Source of the DNA: Candidatus Binatia bacterium
Lineage (GTDB): Bacteria > Desulfobacterota > Binatia > UBA9968 > JAJDTQ01
Length of the DNA: 64,000 nucleotides
Direction: 5' to 3'
Assembly: GCA_022824205.1 (NCBI GenBank)
Contig: JAJEAI010000041.1
Location: forward strand, 856 to 64,855
Below are positions 14,542-19,328 of the stretch, in pieces. The position numbers and the translations under genes are program-made. Under the pieces are notes generated by a model that did not search any database, was not told where the DNA came from, and was given only the letters and a program-made list of their open reading frames with translations. Numbering within the stretch: position 1 is the first letter of the stretch; each line of letters opens with the position of its first letter.

Positions 14542-16401
14542 TCAGGGACCCGGCAATCTCGCCTTCTTCTTTTCGAGCGTGTCCAACTCTGCCATCAATC
14601 GCCGCTTGGCCTTGTGTCGCACTCGCATCGCCGCGATGTAGCGGCGGAAATCGTCGCTTCGGCCCAGGCCTTGCATGAGCTTCTCCATCTTCGAGAGATA
14701 GGGCATCGCCTCACGATAGGCACTGGGCTGGACTCGGGCGATCAGACTCTCGGCCTTGCCTCGCCACACGTCGATGCTGACGTCGGGATGCGTCTTCGCC
14801 ACGGCCTGGGCGATGCGGTCGGCATGCTGGTCCTTGTGAGGAGCCTCCCGAAACCACCGCAAGGCATCCTCCGTCCGTTTCTCGTGAAGCGCAATCGTTA
14901 TCAGGCTATCGTGGTCAGGCGTGTCGCGCCGGAATCGTCGTGCGGGGAATGGAAGTCCTGTATCCGGCAACGGCCAACCGGCCGCGGACGAAGGGGCGGA
15001 GCCGGTCTCCAGGTAGCGCAACAACCCGGACCTCACCTGCGGCCAGCAGCCTTTCTTGCGGGCTGTCTGTTCGACCCGGCGATAGTTGTCCACCGTGCTC
15101 CGTTCGAGAAATCCCTCCACTCGCAACGCCGCTGCCAGCAACCAGTCCCGCCGTCGCCGGGCGATGTCAAGCAACTGCTCCACCAACTTCCAGGCGATGC
15201 CGGGTGAATGCTCCAGGGTCAGCCTGAAGCCCTGGTAGATCCAGTGCACGGCCTGGTCGTAGTCTTTGCTCGCCGACAGGGCATCAACCAGATCGACATA
15301 GTTGTCGCAATAGGGCAGCTCGGCAATCATCAGCTCGATCGCTCGATGCTCCTCGCCGGCCTCGCCCAACGCCCGTTGCGTGTACTTCAATAGCTGCTCC
15401 CGACGGTACCGTTCCGACGACCAGCGGCCACGGCCATCGGGCTTGGGGCTGGCCGCCAGCCGGTTGCCGAACGCTTCGGCGACCTCGCGCCAGTCGGCGG
15501 GTTTCATCTGGACCTCGTTCACCGGCGGCGTCAGCCCGTCCAGCAAGCAGTACGAGTCGTTCAGGAGCTTGTCCCAATACCAGATCATGCGCTCCGCGGC
15601 CGGGCGTTTGGTCTGCCTCATCGCCTCCAGCACCACGGCCAGGCAATCGCTGATCTCGCCGGCGGTTTCCCCTTCGTCGTCCGATTCCTCGACCTGGGTG
15701 GTGCCGAGTTTGAACAATTCCTCTCCCAGCTTCAGCACCGCCTCGTGATGCCCGTCGTTCAGCAGCTTCTTGAGTTGCTCTCGAATCGGAGAGTAGGCCG
15801 GCGTATGGCCTTCGTGGCGCCAATAATCCTGCCAGCCTCTCTCGCTGGCCGTCTTGCGAATCTGCCGGCGCAGCCGCGCCACGGCCCAATCCGGAGCCTC
15901 ATCGGTGAGCGGCCCCGCCAGGGGCAACGTATCGAAAAGCGACGGATCGAACGCGAACCGATCCATGGCCCATTCAACGAGCTGCGCCTTTGTCAGAGCG
16001 TCAAGCGCGGCGCGCGCCTCATCGGGATCGACAGCTCGTTCCGTGCCCAAATCTCCCGCCAAGCCATATGTCGAGAGCCGGTCGCTCAACTCGTCACCGT
16101 CGATCCGTGGAACGGATGTCCCCGCCGCGACGCAATCGAGATAAGCCAGAATGACGGCAACGGCGTGCTTGCAAGGCCCGTCGTAGGGACAACTGCACTC
16201 GTGATCCGGCTCGCCGTGGGTCATCCAGACTCGCGTGGCGTAGTTTTCGCTTCCGACAACCTCGGCAACCAGGTGCCCTTCCTCGGTCACCGCGAGATCA
16301 TGCACACGTCGCCGATAGCCCTTGCCGCGCTTGAAAATGGTGGCTCCAGCCCATTGCTCCAGGTCTTCCGTACCGAGTGATGTATAAGGCGTCGTCGGCA
16401 T
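14542..16401 (-). CDS. SWIM zinc-finger domain protein (large, 619 aa)
   Basis: CSCPYDGPCKHAVAVILAY is a canonical SWIM CxCx(n)CxH motif. Start re-derived to MPTTPYTSLGTEDLEQW (ATG 16401). Confidence 0.7.
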   Translation of the reverse strand: MPTTPYTSLGTEDLEQWAGATIFKRGKGYRRRVHDLAVTEEGHLVAEVVGSENYATRVWMTHGEPDHECSCPYDGPCKHAVAVILAYLDCVAAGTSVPRIDGDELSDRLSTYGLAGDLGTERAVDPDEARAALDALTKAQLVEWAMDRFAFDPSLFDTLPLAGPLTDEAPDWAVARLRRQIRKTASERGWQDYWRHEGHTPAYSPIREQLKKLLNDGHHEAVLKLGEELFKLGTTQVEESDDEGETAGEISDCLAVVLEAMRQTKRPAAERMIWYWDKLLNDSYCLLDGLTPPVNEVQMKPADWREVAEAFGNRLAASPKPDGRGRWSSERYRREQLLKYTQRALGEAGEEHRAIELMIAELPYCDNYVDLVDALSASKDYDQAVHWIYQGFRLTLEHSPGIAWKLVEQLLDIARRRRDWLLAAALRVEGFLERSTVDNYRRVEQTARKKGCWPQVRSGLLRYLETGSAPSSAAGWPLPDTGLPFPARRFRRDTPDHDSLITIALHEKRTEDALRWFREAPHKDQHADRIAQAVAKTHPDVSIDVWRGKAESLIARVQPSAYREAMPYLSKMEKLMQGLGRSDDFRRYIAAMRVRHKAKRRLMAELDTLEKKKARLPGP

Positions 16402-16589
16402 GGTAGTCACTTCTCCCCCTGTACCGCATATCGATACCCCGCCAACGTCCATCAAGCCAAGACCCCGCCGTTTCGCCCGTTGGCGCAACCGGCGCTCTCC
16501 CCTCTCCTGTCGGAGGAGTACGCCGACGAGGAAGGTAGCCCTCAACACATTTGCCATTCCCCAACCCGTGGCATAAGGTCTGGCCGTTC

Positions 16590-16715
16590 AATGCGCTCCA
16601 TGATCACTTGGATCAAACGCAAGCCTACGTCCGGAACGCCTTCACGAGCTTACCAATCCTGGATCTCCTCCAGGTCGGCCAAGGCGGAGTTGGTCAGCCG
16701 GATCTCGGCAGGCAC
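16590..16715 (-). pseudogene. Decayed ParE/RelE-like toxin remnant downstream of the Phd/YefM antitoxin
   Basis: Immediately after the antitoxin stop, the minus strand encodes V-PAEIRLTNSALADLEEIQDW and then a TAA stop after ~20 codons. This is a typical toxin N-terminus with no intact downstream frame. Confidence 0.4.
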
Positions 16716-16717
16716 GA

Positions 16718-16981
16718 CTATTCGAGACCGAGTCGGTGCTTGGCTTCGGCCAGCGACACTTCGCGTCCCTCCTCCAGATCCGACAGCCCCTCAATCACCG
16801 CCCGCATGAAGGCGCGCTCATCGTCGGCCGCTTCGAATTCCTCGACGGATTGGACGACCGCCACGCCACGACCCCTACTCGTCACCAAAACCGGACGCCG
16901 CGTTTCCGTTGCGTGTTTCACAACGCGACCGGGGTTCGTCTTGAGGTCGGTCAGCGGAACGATGTCCTCAGAAAATTTCAT
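16718..16981 (-). CDS. Phd/YefM-family type II antitoxin (orphan)
   Basis: MKFSEDIVPLTDLKTNPGRVVKHATETRRPVLVTSRGRGVAVVQSVEEFE matches the Phd/YefM fold. Confidence 0.8.
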   Translation of the reverse strand: MKFSEDIVPLTDLKTNPGRVVKHATETRRPVLVTSRGRGVAVVQSVEEFEAADDERAFMRAVIEGLSDLEEGREVSLAEAKHRLGLE

Positions 16982-17011
16982 TTGATTTTTCTCCTATAGG
17001 ACCTGTTTAGT

Positions 17012-17218
17012 ATGCTACTACTCCTCAAGCTCATGTTCGGCGCTATGATCCGGGCTGCCGAGCGCTGGAGGGCCATCAAGGTCTCTGATCTCGAGCGCCG
17101 CCAAACGCGCGCCGTCAGAGAGGACCTCGATCAGGAATACCAGGCCCCTGACGGCCTCAACCGAAACGCCTCGGCCAATGCTTCCCCCTCCCAATTATCC
17201 AACACTTCTCGGACTTGA
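17012..17218 (+). mobile_element. Possible transposase C-terminal remnant (mutator/IS256-like tail)
   Basis: MLLLLKLMFGAMIRAAERWRAIKV has the L-x-K-L...A...W pattern of IS256-type transposase C-termini. It is short, has no DDE core, and its upstream context is AT-rich. Weak call. Confidence 0.25.
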
Positions 17219-17673
17219 CCCGCGACAAGGACCCCGAACTGCGACAAACTGTCCTGACACTGGTCGCCTTTCACGACGTTGAATCGAAGGTCGACCTGAT
17301 CGAGCGCCGCATCGCGGACGGCGACGACTACCTCGACCTTTTGACCGACAGCTTCACGCGTGAGTTGCTTGGCGAAGACGGCTACTTGACCGCCCTGCTG
17401 GAAATCTGCGCCCGAAAAGTCCTGTACGAGAACGCCTACTGGAACATGCTGGCCGATCTCCGCAACCGCGGTCATCTGGACCAGAACGGCTACAATCAAC
17501 TGCTCGACAAGCTCCACGCCCGGAAGCTCATCGACGACCTCAACTATCGTCGCTGGAGTAGACGAGACGCTCCAGCACTACAGGACGACCCCCTACCACA
17601 CGTGGCTGAATCAGCACCGGACTACTATCCGAAGAGCCGTCTGAAAAACGGACAAAACGACCTGTTTGACTGA
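17215..17673 (+). CDS. Hypothetical protein (152 aa)
   Basis: TTG start overlapping the previous stop. No recognisable motifs (MTRDKDPELRQTVLTLVAFHDVESKVDLIERRIADGDDYLDLL...). Confidence 0.4.
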   Translation: MTRDKDPELRQTVLTLVAFHDVESKVDLIERRIADGDDYLDLLTDSFTRELLGEDGYLTALLEICARKVLYENAYWNMLADLRNRGHLDQNGYNQLLDKLHARKLIDDLNYRRWSRRDAPALQDDPLPHVAESAPDYYPKSRLKNGQNDLFD

Positions 17674-17824
17674 TACCAGTATCTCAGCCGCTCGCCCGAA
17701 CGAGCGCGTCCCATCTCAATCACAGCCAAACGAGCCAGATGATCTTCGAATACGCAACCTCGGCGGTGTCCATGTGGCCGGATTGTAAGCTATACTTGTA
17801 TATCCGTTGAGAGGGGGAGCCGTT

Positions 17825-18049
17825 ATGCTCGCGATCAGACTGCCCGCCGAGGTGGAAGCCCGCCTTGATGCGCTGGCGAAAGCCACGGGTCGGACCAAGA
17901 CCTTTTACGCCCGCGAGGCCATCCTGAAGCACTTGGAAGACCTCGAAGACTTGTACTTGGCCGAACAGCGCCTGATCGAGAGCCGCGCCGGACGATCCGA
18001 AAGCCTACCGCTTGAAGAAGTAATGAAACGCTATGGCATGGAAGGTTGA
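17825..18049 (+). CDS. Ribbon-helix-helix (CopG/RelB/ParD-like) type II antitoxin
   Basis: MLAIRLPAEVEARLDALAKATGRTKTFYAREAILKHLEDLEDLYLAEQRL. ATG at 17825 with AGGGGGAG RBS. Confidence 0.75.
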   Translation: MLAIRLPAEVEARLDALAKATGRTKTFYAREAILKHLEDLEDLYLAEQRLIESRAGRSESLPLEEVMKRYGMEG

Positions 18050-18094
18050 GCTTGACCGTGGCGCTGTGCGCGACCTTGACAAGGGGGATCAACC

Positions 18095-18358
18095 ATGGCT
18101 GCCAATCAACTTGTCCAGGCCCGCATCGACGGGGCCGTGAAAGAGGAAGCGGCCGCCGTGTTGGCTGCGATGGGGCTTACGGTGTCCGATGCAGTGCGGC
18201 TTCTGCTGACCAAGATTGCCCAGGAAAAGGCATTGCCTTTCGAGCCACTGATTCCAAACCCCATCACTATCGAGGCGATGAAGGAGGCCCGCAAGCGCGG
18301 CCTGCCCCGGTTCGACAGCGTACAGACCCTCGTGGACGATCTGAAAACGGAAGATTGA
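18095..18358 (+). CDS. RelB/DinJ-family type II antitoxin
   Basis: VQARIDGAVKEEAAAVLAAMGLTVSDAVRLLLTKIAQEKALPFEPLIPNPITIEAMKEARKRG is a characteristic DinJ/RelB sequence. Confidence 0.8.
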   Translation: MAANQLVQARIDGAVKEEAAAVLAAMGLTVSDAVRLLLTKIAQEKALPFEPLIPNPITIEAMKEARKRGLPRFDSVQTLVDDLKTED

Positions 18359-18383
18359 GCGTACTGTCCAAGGGGACCAACCC

Positions 18384-18617
18384 ATGCCCGTGGTCAACGT
18401 CGATCAAGCCAAGACCCAACTCTCCCGCCTGTTGGCGCAGGTCGAGGCGGGCGAGGAAGTGGTTATCACGCGCCAGGGTGAACCCGTCGCGCGACTTGTC
18501 CGCTACAAGCGGCCGGGCAAGCGGCAATCCGGCACCCCGGAGGGGCGAATCGTCGTGGACGACAGCATCCTCGATCCTCTCCCGGAGGATGAGTTGAAGT
18601 TGTGGGAAGGTGGTTAG
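18384..18617 (+). CDS. Phd/YefM-type (VapB-like) antitoxin
   Basis: MPVVNVDQAKTQLSRLLAQVEAGEEVVITRQGEPVARLV...IVVDDSILDPLPEDELKLWEG matches prevent-host-death-family antitoxins usually paired with VapC. No PIN gene follows. Confidence 0.8.
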   Translation: MPVVNVDQAKTQLSRLLAQVEAGEEVVITRQGEPVARLVRYKRPGKRQSGTPEGRIVVDDSILDPLPEDELKLWEGG

Positions 18618-18668
18618 CGTGTCTCACAAACGACACTTATCCAGCAGGGGAGAGAAGGGAGAAGCAGC

Positions 18669-18986
18669 ATGACCCCGCTCGAAATCGTATTCGCCGCGGC
18701 GTCCCTGGCACTTCAGACCGTCGCCGTTGGGGCCATCTTCTACGGCATCGGCCAAATGCGCCGGGCCGGAGACCAACGCGAGAAGCGCGAGGATGCCCGG
18801 CACTCCGAAACCATGGAAGCGCTACGCCAGCAGGGCGAAGTGCTCCAGGCACTTGTCCGGGGTATTGAACAGCAAGGCGAAGCTCTCCGGCAGCAAGCCG
18901 AAGCACTCAAACAGCAAGGCGAAGCGCTCCGGCAACAGGGCGAAGCGCTCAAGATCGTAATCGAGAGAACCGCCGCCCCGGCCTAG
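18669..18986 (+). CDS. Small membrane-anchored coiled-coil protein with tandem heptad repeats
   Basis: N-terminal hydrophobic helix (IVFAAASLALQTVAVGAIFYGIG), then QQGEVLQALVRGIEQQGEALRQQAEALKQQGEALRQQGEALK, encoded by four or five 21-bp tandem DNA repeats (cagcaaggcgaagcKctccgg). Purine-rich RBS. Confidence 0.6.
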   Translation: MTPLEIVFAAASLALQTVAVGAIFYGIGQMRRAGDQREKREDARHSETMEALRQQGEVLQALVRGIEQQGEALRQQAEALKQQGEALRQQGEALKIVIERTAAPA

Positions 18987-19144
18987 CTAGGAGTCCTCAC
19001 GGAAAGCGATGCCCGGCATCAGTGCCCTTCGCCCTCGCTCCTTCTCCTTGACACCCCGACACCCGCAACCCACAATGAAGGATGCTCCGGCGCCACGCCC
19101 TCCCGGCTCTTTTCGGACCGGGCCGAGGGCGCCGGCATGGATCC

Positions 19145-19291
19145 ATGATCGAGCTTCTTGTGACCTATCCGGGTCTCGTGTTTATCGGACTGTCGATGTT
19201 GGTGGTTCTCGACACGGTGAGCGGGAACTTGCCTCCGGCGGCGCTGGTGCCGTTCGCCTTGGGCACGGTGGTGGCGGTGATCCTTTTGTGA
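19145..19291 (+). CDS. Possible 48-aa two-helix membrane peptide
   Basis: MIELLVTYPGLVFIGLSMLVVLDTVSGNLPPAALVPFALGTVVAVILL is hydrophobic. Weak call. Confidence 0.3.
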   Translation: MIELLVTYPGLVFIGLSMLVVLDTVSGNLPPAALVPFALGTVVAVILL

Positions 19292-19328
19292 GGCGGTGCC
19301 GGCCGGTGCCGGGAGTGGAGCCGAGAGA

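Follow-up and report, generated by a model that had tools for sequence, protein, structure and literature searches.

How does a bacterial chromosome come to carry three different antitoxin genes in a row, with no toxin gene among them? The question is raised by positions 17825 to 18617 of a 64,000-nucleotide (nt) stretch of contig JAJEAI010000041.1 from a Candidatus Binatia bacterium, the whole of which is called here the window. In a preliminary description of this DNA, a ribbon-helix-helix antitoxin, a RelB/DinJ antitoxin and a Phd/YefM antitoxin (hereafter A1, A2 and A3) had been recognized in tandem, and three explanations had been put forward: an anti-addiction island, antitoxins repurposed as transcription factors, or remnants left after toxin purging. 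The last of these is strongly supported by intact toxins in relatives and by relics and mappable deletion junctions in the window itself. We consider it probable that the array is what toxin-first erosion has left of an island, acquired horizontally, in which defence genes stood together with toxin-antitoxin (TA) modules.

Antitoxins and toxin relics of the array

Besides the three tandem genes, a fourth intact antitoxin gene lies on the minus strand, and traces of three toxin genes can be recognized. The features concerned are the following (aa, amino acids).

17825..18049, plus strand: A1, intact RelB-like ribbon-helix-helix antitoxin, 74 aa (NF048017, E 1.3e-32)
18095..18358, plus strand: A2, intact RelB/DinJ antitoxin, 87 aa (TIGR02384, E 2.5e-22; PF04221, E 8e-19)
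18384..18617, plus strand: A3, intact Phd/YefM antitoxin of the PIN (VapC)-paired type, 77 aa (PF02604, E 8e-12; TIGR01552)
16718..16981, minus strand: fourth orphan antitoxin, intact Phd/YefM, 87 aa (PF02604, E 2.7e-16, 59.5 bits)
18033..18083, plus strand: relic of the parE gene of the A1-cognate toxin, first 17 codons, overlapping the A1 stop and followed by a deletion junction (tblastn)
16583..16715, minus strand: relic of ParE104, the partner of the minus-strand Phd, reduced to about 44 codons of the N-terminal part and interrupted by an in-frame stop (tblastn)
18345..18364, plus strand: remnant of the 5′ end of yafQ, about 20 nt, start codon lost or mutated (alignment with L007 6833-6852)

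The three tandem genes are present as described, with spacers of 45 nt (A1-A2) and 25 nt (A2-A3), and the search with antitoxin-family profiles that had been suggested places each product above curated cut-offs. A1 reaches 111.8 bits with the NCBIfam model NF048017 (RelB-like antitoxin; cut-off 50), 35.9 bits with Pfam TraY (cut-off 21.3) and 31.3 bits with DUF6290 (cut-off 27). The scores of A2 are 78.9 bits with TIGR02384 (cut-off 45.65) and 67.7 bits with PF04221 (cut-off 22.4), those of A3 45.2 bits with PF02604 (cut-off 29.8) and 34.1 bits with TIGR01552 (cut-off 20.8). Paralogs of the window antitoxins are absent from the 64 kb. The same arrangement is found in a 110.8-kb ENA scaffold and in a contig of an independent Logan assembly; an assembly artefact is therefore unlikely.

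It had also been stated that no RelE, ParE, YafQ or VapC frame is present. Indeed, no intact toxin open reading frame (ORF) lies between or after the array genes, but two ParE relics exist. The first belongs to a 35-codon ORF (18033-18140), which starts with MAWKVELDRGAVRDLDK and overlaps the stop codon of A1, as toxin and antitoxin genes do in intact pairs. When the 89-aa ParE of L007 and L009, two of the related loci presented below, was used as a tblastn query against the window (ParE89), 17 of 17 residues (MAWKVELDRGAVRDLDK) were identical (E 8e-8), after which the match ends. The second relic is matched by the 104-aa ParE of relatives at 16715-16560 on the minus strand, with 79% identity (E 1.9e-20) and a stop at the position of Y22. 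Its 3′ part was deleted along with about 3.7 kb of cargo, the junction being mapped against L008 and L015. Compared with L015, this relic shows 6 substitutions in 135 nt, including a nonsense change, versus 1 in 264 nt for the adjacent Phd gene, the product of which is identical to the L015 copy (Fisher p=0.007). So far, then, drift affects the ParE104 relic and spares the neighbouring antitoxin.

With the cognate toxins of relatives as queries, tblastn gave no credible match to YafQ (YafQ93) or to PIN within the window, and no recognisable toxin relic follows A3. Toxins of the cognate types are also absent elsewhere in these 64 kb. None of the window antitoxins belongs to a complete type II TA module, in which an intact toxin gene would stand beside it in one operon.

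Intact modules and deletion junctions in one chromosomal slot

Related loci were taken from Binatia-like metagenome genomes, as contigs encoding proteins 92-99% identical to A1 together with contigs carrying A3 homologs; they are designated by L numbers. Many of them share the slot that the array occupies in the window (16400-19300). On its left stand genes for an amidohydrolase and a SWIM-domain protein, on its right a gene for a 48-aa protein, a TPR gene and genes for TonB, P5C reductase, cupin, DksA, LolA and FtsK. The closest relative is L015, the left-flank genes of which are 94-98% identical to those of the window. The slot is occupied as follows in the other loci.

L009, L010, L012: A1 and ParE89 only
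L007: Phd (minus strand), 1622-aa gene, A1 with ParE89, RelB with YafQ93, 1976-aa helicase
L013: 1019-aa Eco57I-like gene (faint Pfam match), A1 with ParE, toxin-less HicB-like, Phd and RelB genes, helicase
L014: large gene split by a transposase, A1 without toxin, Phd75, Phd76 with PIN, helicase
L008, L011: minus-strand ParE104 with Phd, A1, out-of-frame fusion of a truncated parE with a 5′-truncated A3, heptad-repeat gene
L018-L025: variable cargo (NACHT, HTH-double-PIN, Prok-E2/JAB), Phd76 with intact PIN128, orphan RelB87

The comparison of synteny in related genomes, which the preliminary description had recommended, is informative: relatives carry intact toxins at the corresponding positions of the slot. 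A1, A2, A3 and the minus-strand Phd each have homologs paired with the expected type of toxin (ParE, YafQ, PIN and ParE, respectively). A1 homologs are very numerous and highly conserved, and occur on a plasmid as well. P0002, an ortholog 99% identical to A1, is followed by a ParE toxin in L007, L009, L010 and L012, and intact A1-ParE pairs, in which a PF05016 toxin overlaps the antitoxin stop, occupy the slot in these four loci and in L013. The DNA of A2 is 87% identical to L007 6569-6852, where the RelB ortholog is followed by a YafQ toxin (YafQ93, PF15738). Homologs of A3 are 79-84% identical to it; an intact 128-aa PIN comes next in L014 and in L018-L025, and a PIN relic (LQFLLDTHA) comes after the orthologous Phd of L017. 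Finally, the minus-strand type of Phd is found with an intact ParE104 in L008, L011, L015 and L018.

Erosion can also be followed outside the window. Independent truncations have left parE and relB relics in L014 and L017, and orphan Phd and RelB genes in L013. Among the 72 evaluable A1 loci of public metagenomes, ParE is intact in 66, partial in 5 and absent in 1. Because 66 of the 72 loci keep an intact ParE, an orphan A1 is a minority, derived state. In L018, L020, L021 and L023-L025 (2738-3124), a PIN gene of 128 codons, intact and beginning with GTG, escaped the gene finder in most contigs; orphan calls made there from gene predictions alone would therefore be wrong.

The large genes interspersed with these modules point to phage defence. 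In PADLOC searches, the 1622-aa protein, the gene of which is intact in L015, matches REase_MTase_IIG (E=0) and DrmMI (1e-104), the helicase is DruE-like (6e-107) and a 344-aa protein of L008 corresponds to a DrmD fragment; a complete DISARM or Druantia set was verified at no locus. In these Binatia-like genomes, a hypervariable hotspot of defence genes extends from the SWIM and amidohydrolase genes to the 48-aa/TPR/TonB block. Its cargo varies from genome to genome, and Phd-PIN, RelB and A1-ParE modules recur at its edges or between large defence genes.

Against this background, the junctions of the window can be mapped. In blastn alignments, window 17290-18083 corresponds to L007 5464-6259 and window 18081-18364 to L007 6569-6852. 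Between A1 and A2, the window thus has no counterpart of about 309 nt (L007 6260-6568), which comprise parE codons 18-89 and the operator/promoter palindrome of RelB (TATTGTGCATTACAATGTAATGCACAATA in L007). The junction sits in an AAG...GATC microhomology. A2 is without its own promoter and operator palindrome, both found in L007 and L013, and keeps its Shine-Dalgarno sequence alone. Past A2, homology with L007 stops about 6 nt beyond the RelB stop and all L007 sequence after 6852 is missing; the junction, at about 18365-18368, is followed by the native Phd upstream region, as in L013, L014 and L017. Directly after A3, as in L008 and L011, stands a 105-aa heptad-repeat gene; the DruE-like helicase of relatives is missing from the window. 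On the left side, about 3.7 kb present in L015 are missing between the SWIM gene and parE104, including the 3′ part of the toxin gene. The large restriction gene is nearly all lost, with a 68-codon transposase tail in its place and a 152-codon ORF (17215-17673) remaining. The deletion junctions fall in unique sequence. The direction of change would be deletion in the window lineage rather than insertion in the relatives, since N-terminal codons of toxins persist in place.

These alignments also account for the similar ribosome-binding contexts of A2 and A3, which had been taken to suggest a cassette-like duplication of the translation signal. The two motifs are present (caagggggatcaaccATG at 18080 and caaggggaccaacccATG at 18369), but their likeness is explained by the native contexts of the two genes and by an effect of the junction rather than by duplication. 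RelB is natively preceded by AAAGGAGCTTCAACCATG in L007 and by AAAGGAGGGTCCACCATG in L013, Phd by CCAAGGAAACCAGACTCATG in L013, CAGGGAGGCCAAACCATG in L014 and GGAGACCAAACCCATG in L017. The 'caacc/ccaaccc + ATG' portions are native to each gene, and the CAAG of the first motif represents parE codons 16-17 at the deletion junction. A duplicated cassette or a site-specific recombination motif at CAAGGGG was suspected, since several loci lose colinearity at 18083. This idea was abandoned: the break at 18083 is the end of the window's own homology, and parE continues to about codon 70 in L008 and L011 and to about codon 21 in L014. An integron-like array was discarded as well, the spacers containing no attC-like imperfect inverted repeats and the flanking genes no integrase domain.

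Probable toxin-first erosion and its alternatives

How such a region may have arisen can be proposed. The ancestral island, in a Binatia-like bacterium, would have combined genes for phage defence and four or more type II TA modules, and would have been seated in the variable slot between the SWIM-domain gene and the 48-aa/TPR/TonB block. The island has a G+C content of 59.8%, versus 66.4% for the whole window. Serial deletions would have taken each toxin and adjoining defence cargo, halting short of each antitoxin; ParE after A1, YafQ after A2, PIN after A3 and ParE after the minus-strand Phd would have been lost in this way. In such a model, loss of the toxin would be safe for the cell, and loss of the antitoxin would be lethal as long as stable toxin remains. 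Toxin-first loss would be the viable route of decay because the antitoxin cannot go while stable toxin persists, and repeated deletion under this filter would enrich the region in orphan antitoxins beside deletion scars. Two of the deletions removed a toxin with adjacent cargo and ended at the antitoxin, which is consistent with such a filter.

As to expression, A1 keeps its native upstream region, including a palindrome (TATACTTGTATA at 17791-17802) that is a probable operator. A2 and A3, the own promoters of which are lost, would, if expressed at all, probably depend on read-through from the A1 promoter. There is no terminator-like site between A1 and the 105-aa gene, and a sigma-70 scan found no consensus promoter upstream of A1; the operon assignment rests on spacing, Shine-Dalgarno sequences and the lack of terminators. 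No function would be required of the leftover antitoxins, and they would be the next to decay. In sister genomes this has already happened: A3 is truncated in L008 and L011, RelB in L014 and L017, and these truncations favour ongoing decay over a maintained array.

Decay of this kind has precedents. The ccdO157 system of Escherichia coli has reportedly undergone it. In a survey of Photorhabdus, pseudogenisation affected the toxin only in 185 copies and the antitoxin only in 8 (Belot et al., 2026, PMC13617665), and its authors propose a two-step decay in which the toxin is inactivated first (PMC13617665). The window resembles these cases in that toxins are truncated or deleted and antitoxins intact, at high-turnover spots marked by mobile-element debris, and in that one syntenic interval holds intact versions in some relatives and eroded ones in others. 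It differs from them in that four modules, with antitoxins of three families, have been eroded side by side, and in that three of the orphans form a compact tandem, operon-like array, in an uncultured Binatia-like host. Orphan antitoxins abound in the Klebsiella pneumoniae complex, where they have been read as degrading pairs or as possible anti-addiction factors; they often stand in the flanking context of a valid pair, and only 8% have no candidate coding sequence nearby (Horesh et al., 2020, PMC7192599). Like them, the window antitoxins are homologs without a partner toxin. Unlike them, found individually, the absence of the toxins is established here by relics and by junctions mapped against relatives.

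TA modules also occur embedded in defence islands and variable hotspots. In the relatives, TA pairs are likewise interspersed with type IIG restriction-modification/DrmMI-like, DruE-like helicase, DrmD-like (fragment), NACHT and Prok-E2/JAB genes, whereas in the window the defence cargo is gone save for the 152-codon tail. The window array is thus a new instance of a known process in known families. Existing decay models are confirmed rather than challenged by it, and specialists will find no surprise. Its value is that of a clean, fully mapped example of the predicted asymmetric decay of TA systems, with four toxins deleted and four antitoxins spared, and with intact, half-eroded and differently eroded versions sharing one slot among related uncultured bacteria. 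It also carries a warning for annotation: runs of antitoxin genes in metagenome-assembled genomes should not be counted as TA systems, and mark former defence islands.

Several observations weigh against simple erosion. All four antitoxin ORFs have kept their start codons and Shine-Dalgarno sequences and have no frameshifts, which is rather neat for purely neutral decay. If either partner were equally likely to be lost first, survival of four antitoxins out of four would be expected in about 1 case in 16; the asymmetry in lethality would account for most of this survival. The ratio of nonsynonymous to synonymous divergence (dN/dS) from relatives is low, with values of 0.02-0.09 for A1, 0.09-0.26 for A2 and 0.13 for A3. 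The orphan RelB is intact across 7 related genomes, where the corresponding ratio for polymorphism (pN/pS) is 0.32. Some residual constraint on the antitoxins, or some function, is therefore possible. Furthermore, the timing of the deletions is not separable from sequence divergence. The A2-A3 and A3-105-aa junctions have no direct ancestor among the relatives, so that the toxin assigned to A3 as its lost partner is deduced from loci about 80% identical, whether paralogs or orthologs. Finally, the search for toxins that might act in trans spans 64 kb of the genome. Erosion is nevertheless favoured. As a test of selection after toxin loss, dN/dS was dropped, the divergence before and after the loss being inseparable, and its values mostly reflect the time before the loss. 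In L018-L025, the PIN-paired Phd has a pN/pS of 0, against 0.32 for the adjacent orphan RelB, the density of variable sites being about 5 times higher in the latter. Constraint on the orphan RelB thus appears relaxed, though not obviously nil.

Such residual constraint could be understood if, after toxin loss, selection had kept the three antitoxins as one operon on the A1 promoter. This maintained anti-addiction array would protect the cell against the same ParE, YafQ and PIN toxins whenever recombination brings in or removes plasmids, phages or TA-framed defence islands that carry them. Both the maintenance and the protection it would confer seem unlikely to us, although the intact ORFs and Shine-Dalgarno sequences, the operon-like spacing without an intervening terminator, the extreme conservation and wide distribution of A1, on a plasmid as well, and the low ratios given above for the array and for the orphan RelB would all fit, and in similar samples related strains have the toxins, intact, in this slot. 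For ccd the concept is established; for orphan antitoxins it has been discussed. The chromosomal ccd of Erwinia chrysanthemi, a complete TA pair, is said to have been shown experimentally to act against the ccd of the F plasmid. By analogy, an antitoxin encoded on the chromosome could counteract a homologous toxin arriving from outside and cancel post-segregational killing; unlike that pair, the window keeps antitoxins only. The low dN/dS may largely predate toxin loss, truncation affects A3 in L008 and L011, as it does RelB in L014 and L017, the orphan RelB is less constrained than the toxin-paired Phd beside it, and the DNA of the A1-A2 junction has no match in the JGI metagenomes, so that there is no sign of spread in that collection. 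It may also be imagined that the three antitoxins, fused under the A1 promoter, form a selected antidote cassette of multiple specificity, giving immunity to the ParE, YafQ and PIN toxins by which the defence islands swapped at this hotspot within the population are framed. We regard this as rather improbable; if true, islands could be gained and discarded without post-segregational killing. More generally, leftover antitoxins acting as a selected immunity array would bear on the turnover of defence islands at hotspots.

The idea that the orphan ribbon-helix-helix, RelB and Phd proteins now regulate other genes, such as the downstream 105-aa, 48-aa and TPR genes, appears very improbable. Their DNA-binding N-terminal domains are intact, and in L018-L025 the orphan RelB is conserved directly upstream of the 48-aa/TPR block, but the toxin-binding C-termini are as conserved as the DNA-binding parts (as in the C-terminus of A3, IVVDDSILDPLPEDELKLWEGG, set against orthologs paired with PIN), new operator sites were not identified, and the minimal slot of L009 keeps the 48-aa and TPR genes without A2 and A3. 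Hardly credible is the notion that toxins are present and unrecognised, whether as novel proteins like the 105-aa membrane coiled-coil protein or as small overlapping ORFs, or that the assembly has collapsed. The 105-aa gene does start 51 nt after A3 with a strong Shine-Dalgarno sequence, and about half of the Klebsiella 'orphan' antitoxins had an uncharacterised neighbouring coding sequence (PMC7192599). However, spacers of 45 and 25 nt are too small for a toxin, the 183-codon ORF at 18046-18597, which overlaps A2 and A3, is a typical shadow frame of high-G+C DNA, and a collapse is opposed by the agreement of two independent assemblies and by the position of the junctions in unique sequence. 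Moreover, L008 and L011 keep the 105-aa homolog although their A3 is truncated and out of frame, and an A3-dependent toxin is thereby excluded for this protein.

Neighbouring genes and debris

Around the array, the following features complete the eroded region.

17012..17218, plus strand: C-terminal fragment of a transposase, 68-codon ORF (tblastn)
17220..17673, plus strand: C-terminal relic of a type IIG restriction-methylase/DrmMI-like gene for a protein of about 1600 aa, within the 152-codon ORF that begins at 17215 (blastn)
18669..18986, plus strand: heptad-repeat protein of 105 aa, the N-terminal segment of which is hydrophobic, island member downstream of A3
16443..16487, plus strand: 45-nt remnant of an A3-type phd gene (5′ end), at the left island edge by the SWIM-domain gene (blastn)

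Both neighbours mentioned in the preliminary description, a transposase-like fragment and a heptad-repeat protein, could be confirmed. The fragment at 17012-17218 has no Pfam match and is 56% identical (tblastn, E 1e-15) to an annotated transposase of a Mesorhizobium plasmid. Kinship with the Transposase_mut gene of L014 was ruled out, the two having zero similarity. The restriction-gene tail matches L007 5127-5199 (97%) and then 5464 onwards (89%), inside the 1622-aa gene. The 105-aa gene contains 3.9 copies of a 21-nt repeat at 18870-18950, encoding heptad units of the EALRQQG type, and its product matches no family model. It follows the truncated A3 in L008 and L011 and is missing from the minimal slot of L009. 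The homologs in L008 and L011 are without about 205 nt of the gene (window 18727-18931), including part of the repeat tract.

At the left edge, the 45-nt relic is 84-87% identical (blastn) to the 5′ ends of the Phd genes of L014, L008 and L011 and to window 18395-18438. It also occurs in L008, L009, L015 and L016, and suggests an ancestral phd broken at island insertion or by rearrangement. The island is flanked there by the gene of a SWIM zinc-finger-domain protein of about 620-670 aa (window 14542-16557, minus strand). In L016, which lies on the same contig as L007, the match to its product is limited to residues 113-469 (89%); the flanking SWIM gene may itself be rearranged in some relatives. 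At the right border, the sole sigma-70-like promoter match of the 16.4-19.4 kb region (window 19048-19076; TTGACA, 17 nt, CACAAT) sits immediately upstream of the conserved 48-aa gene.

Two further arrangements concern RelB in the relatives. In L014 (6318-6719) and L017 (5910-6000), a relB 5′ fragment of about 13 codons (...ARIE/D) is joined straight to the Phd upstream region, and in L014 the middle fragment of relB reappears after that Phd gene, like a Phd unit nested within relB. This joint could result from a nested insertion or from two deletions in a duplicated array. In L018-L025 (3417-3635), the orphan RelB87 is followed by a 72-codon ORF, conserved among these genomes, the first 5-6 residues of which are YafQ-like (MRTIE/MRKIE) and the rest unrelated; this ORF may represent a yafQ that decayed through an ancient replacement or frameshift.

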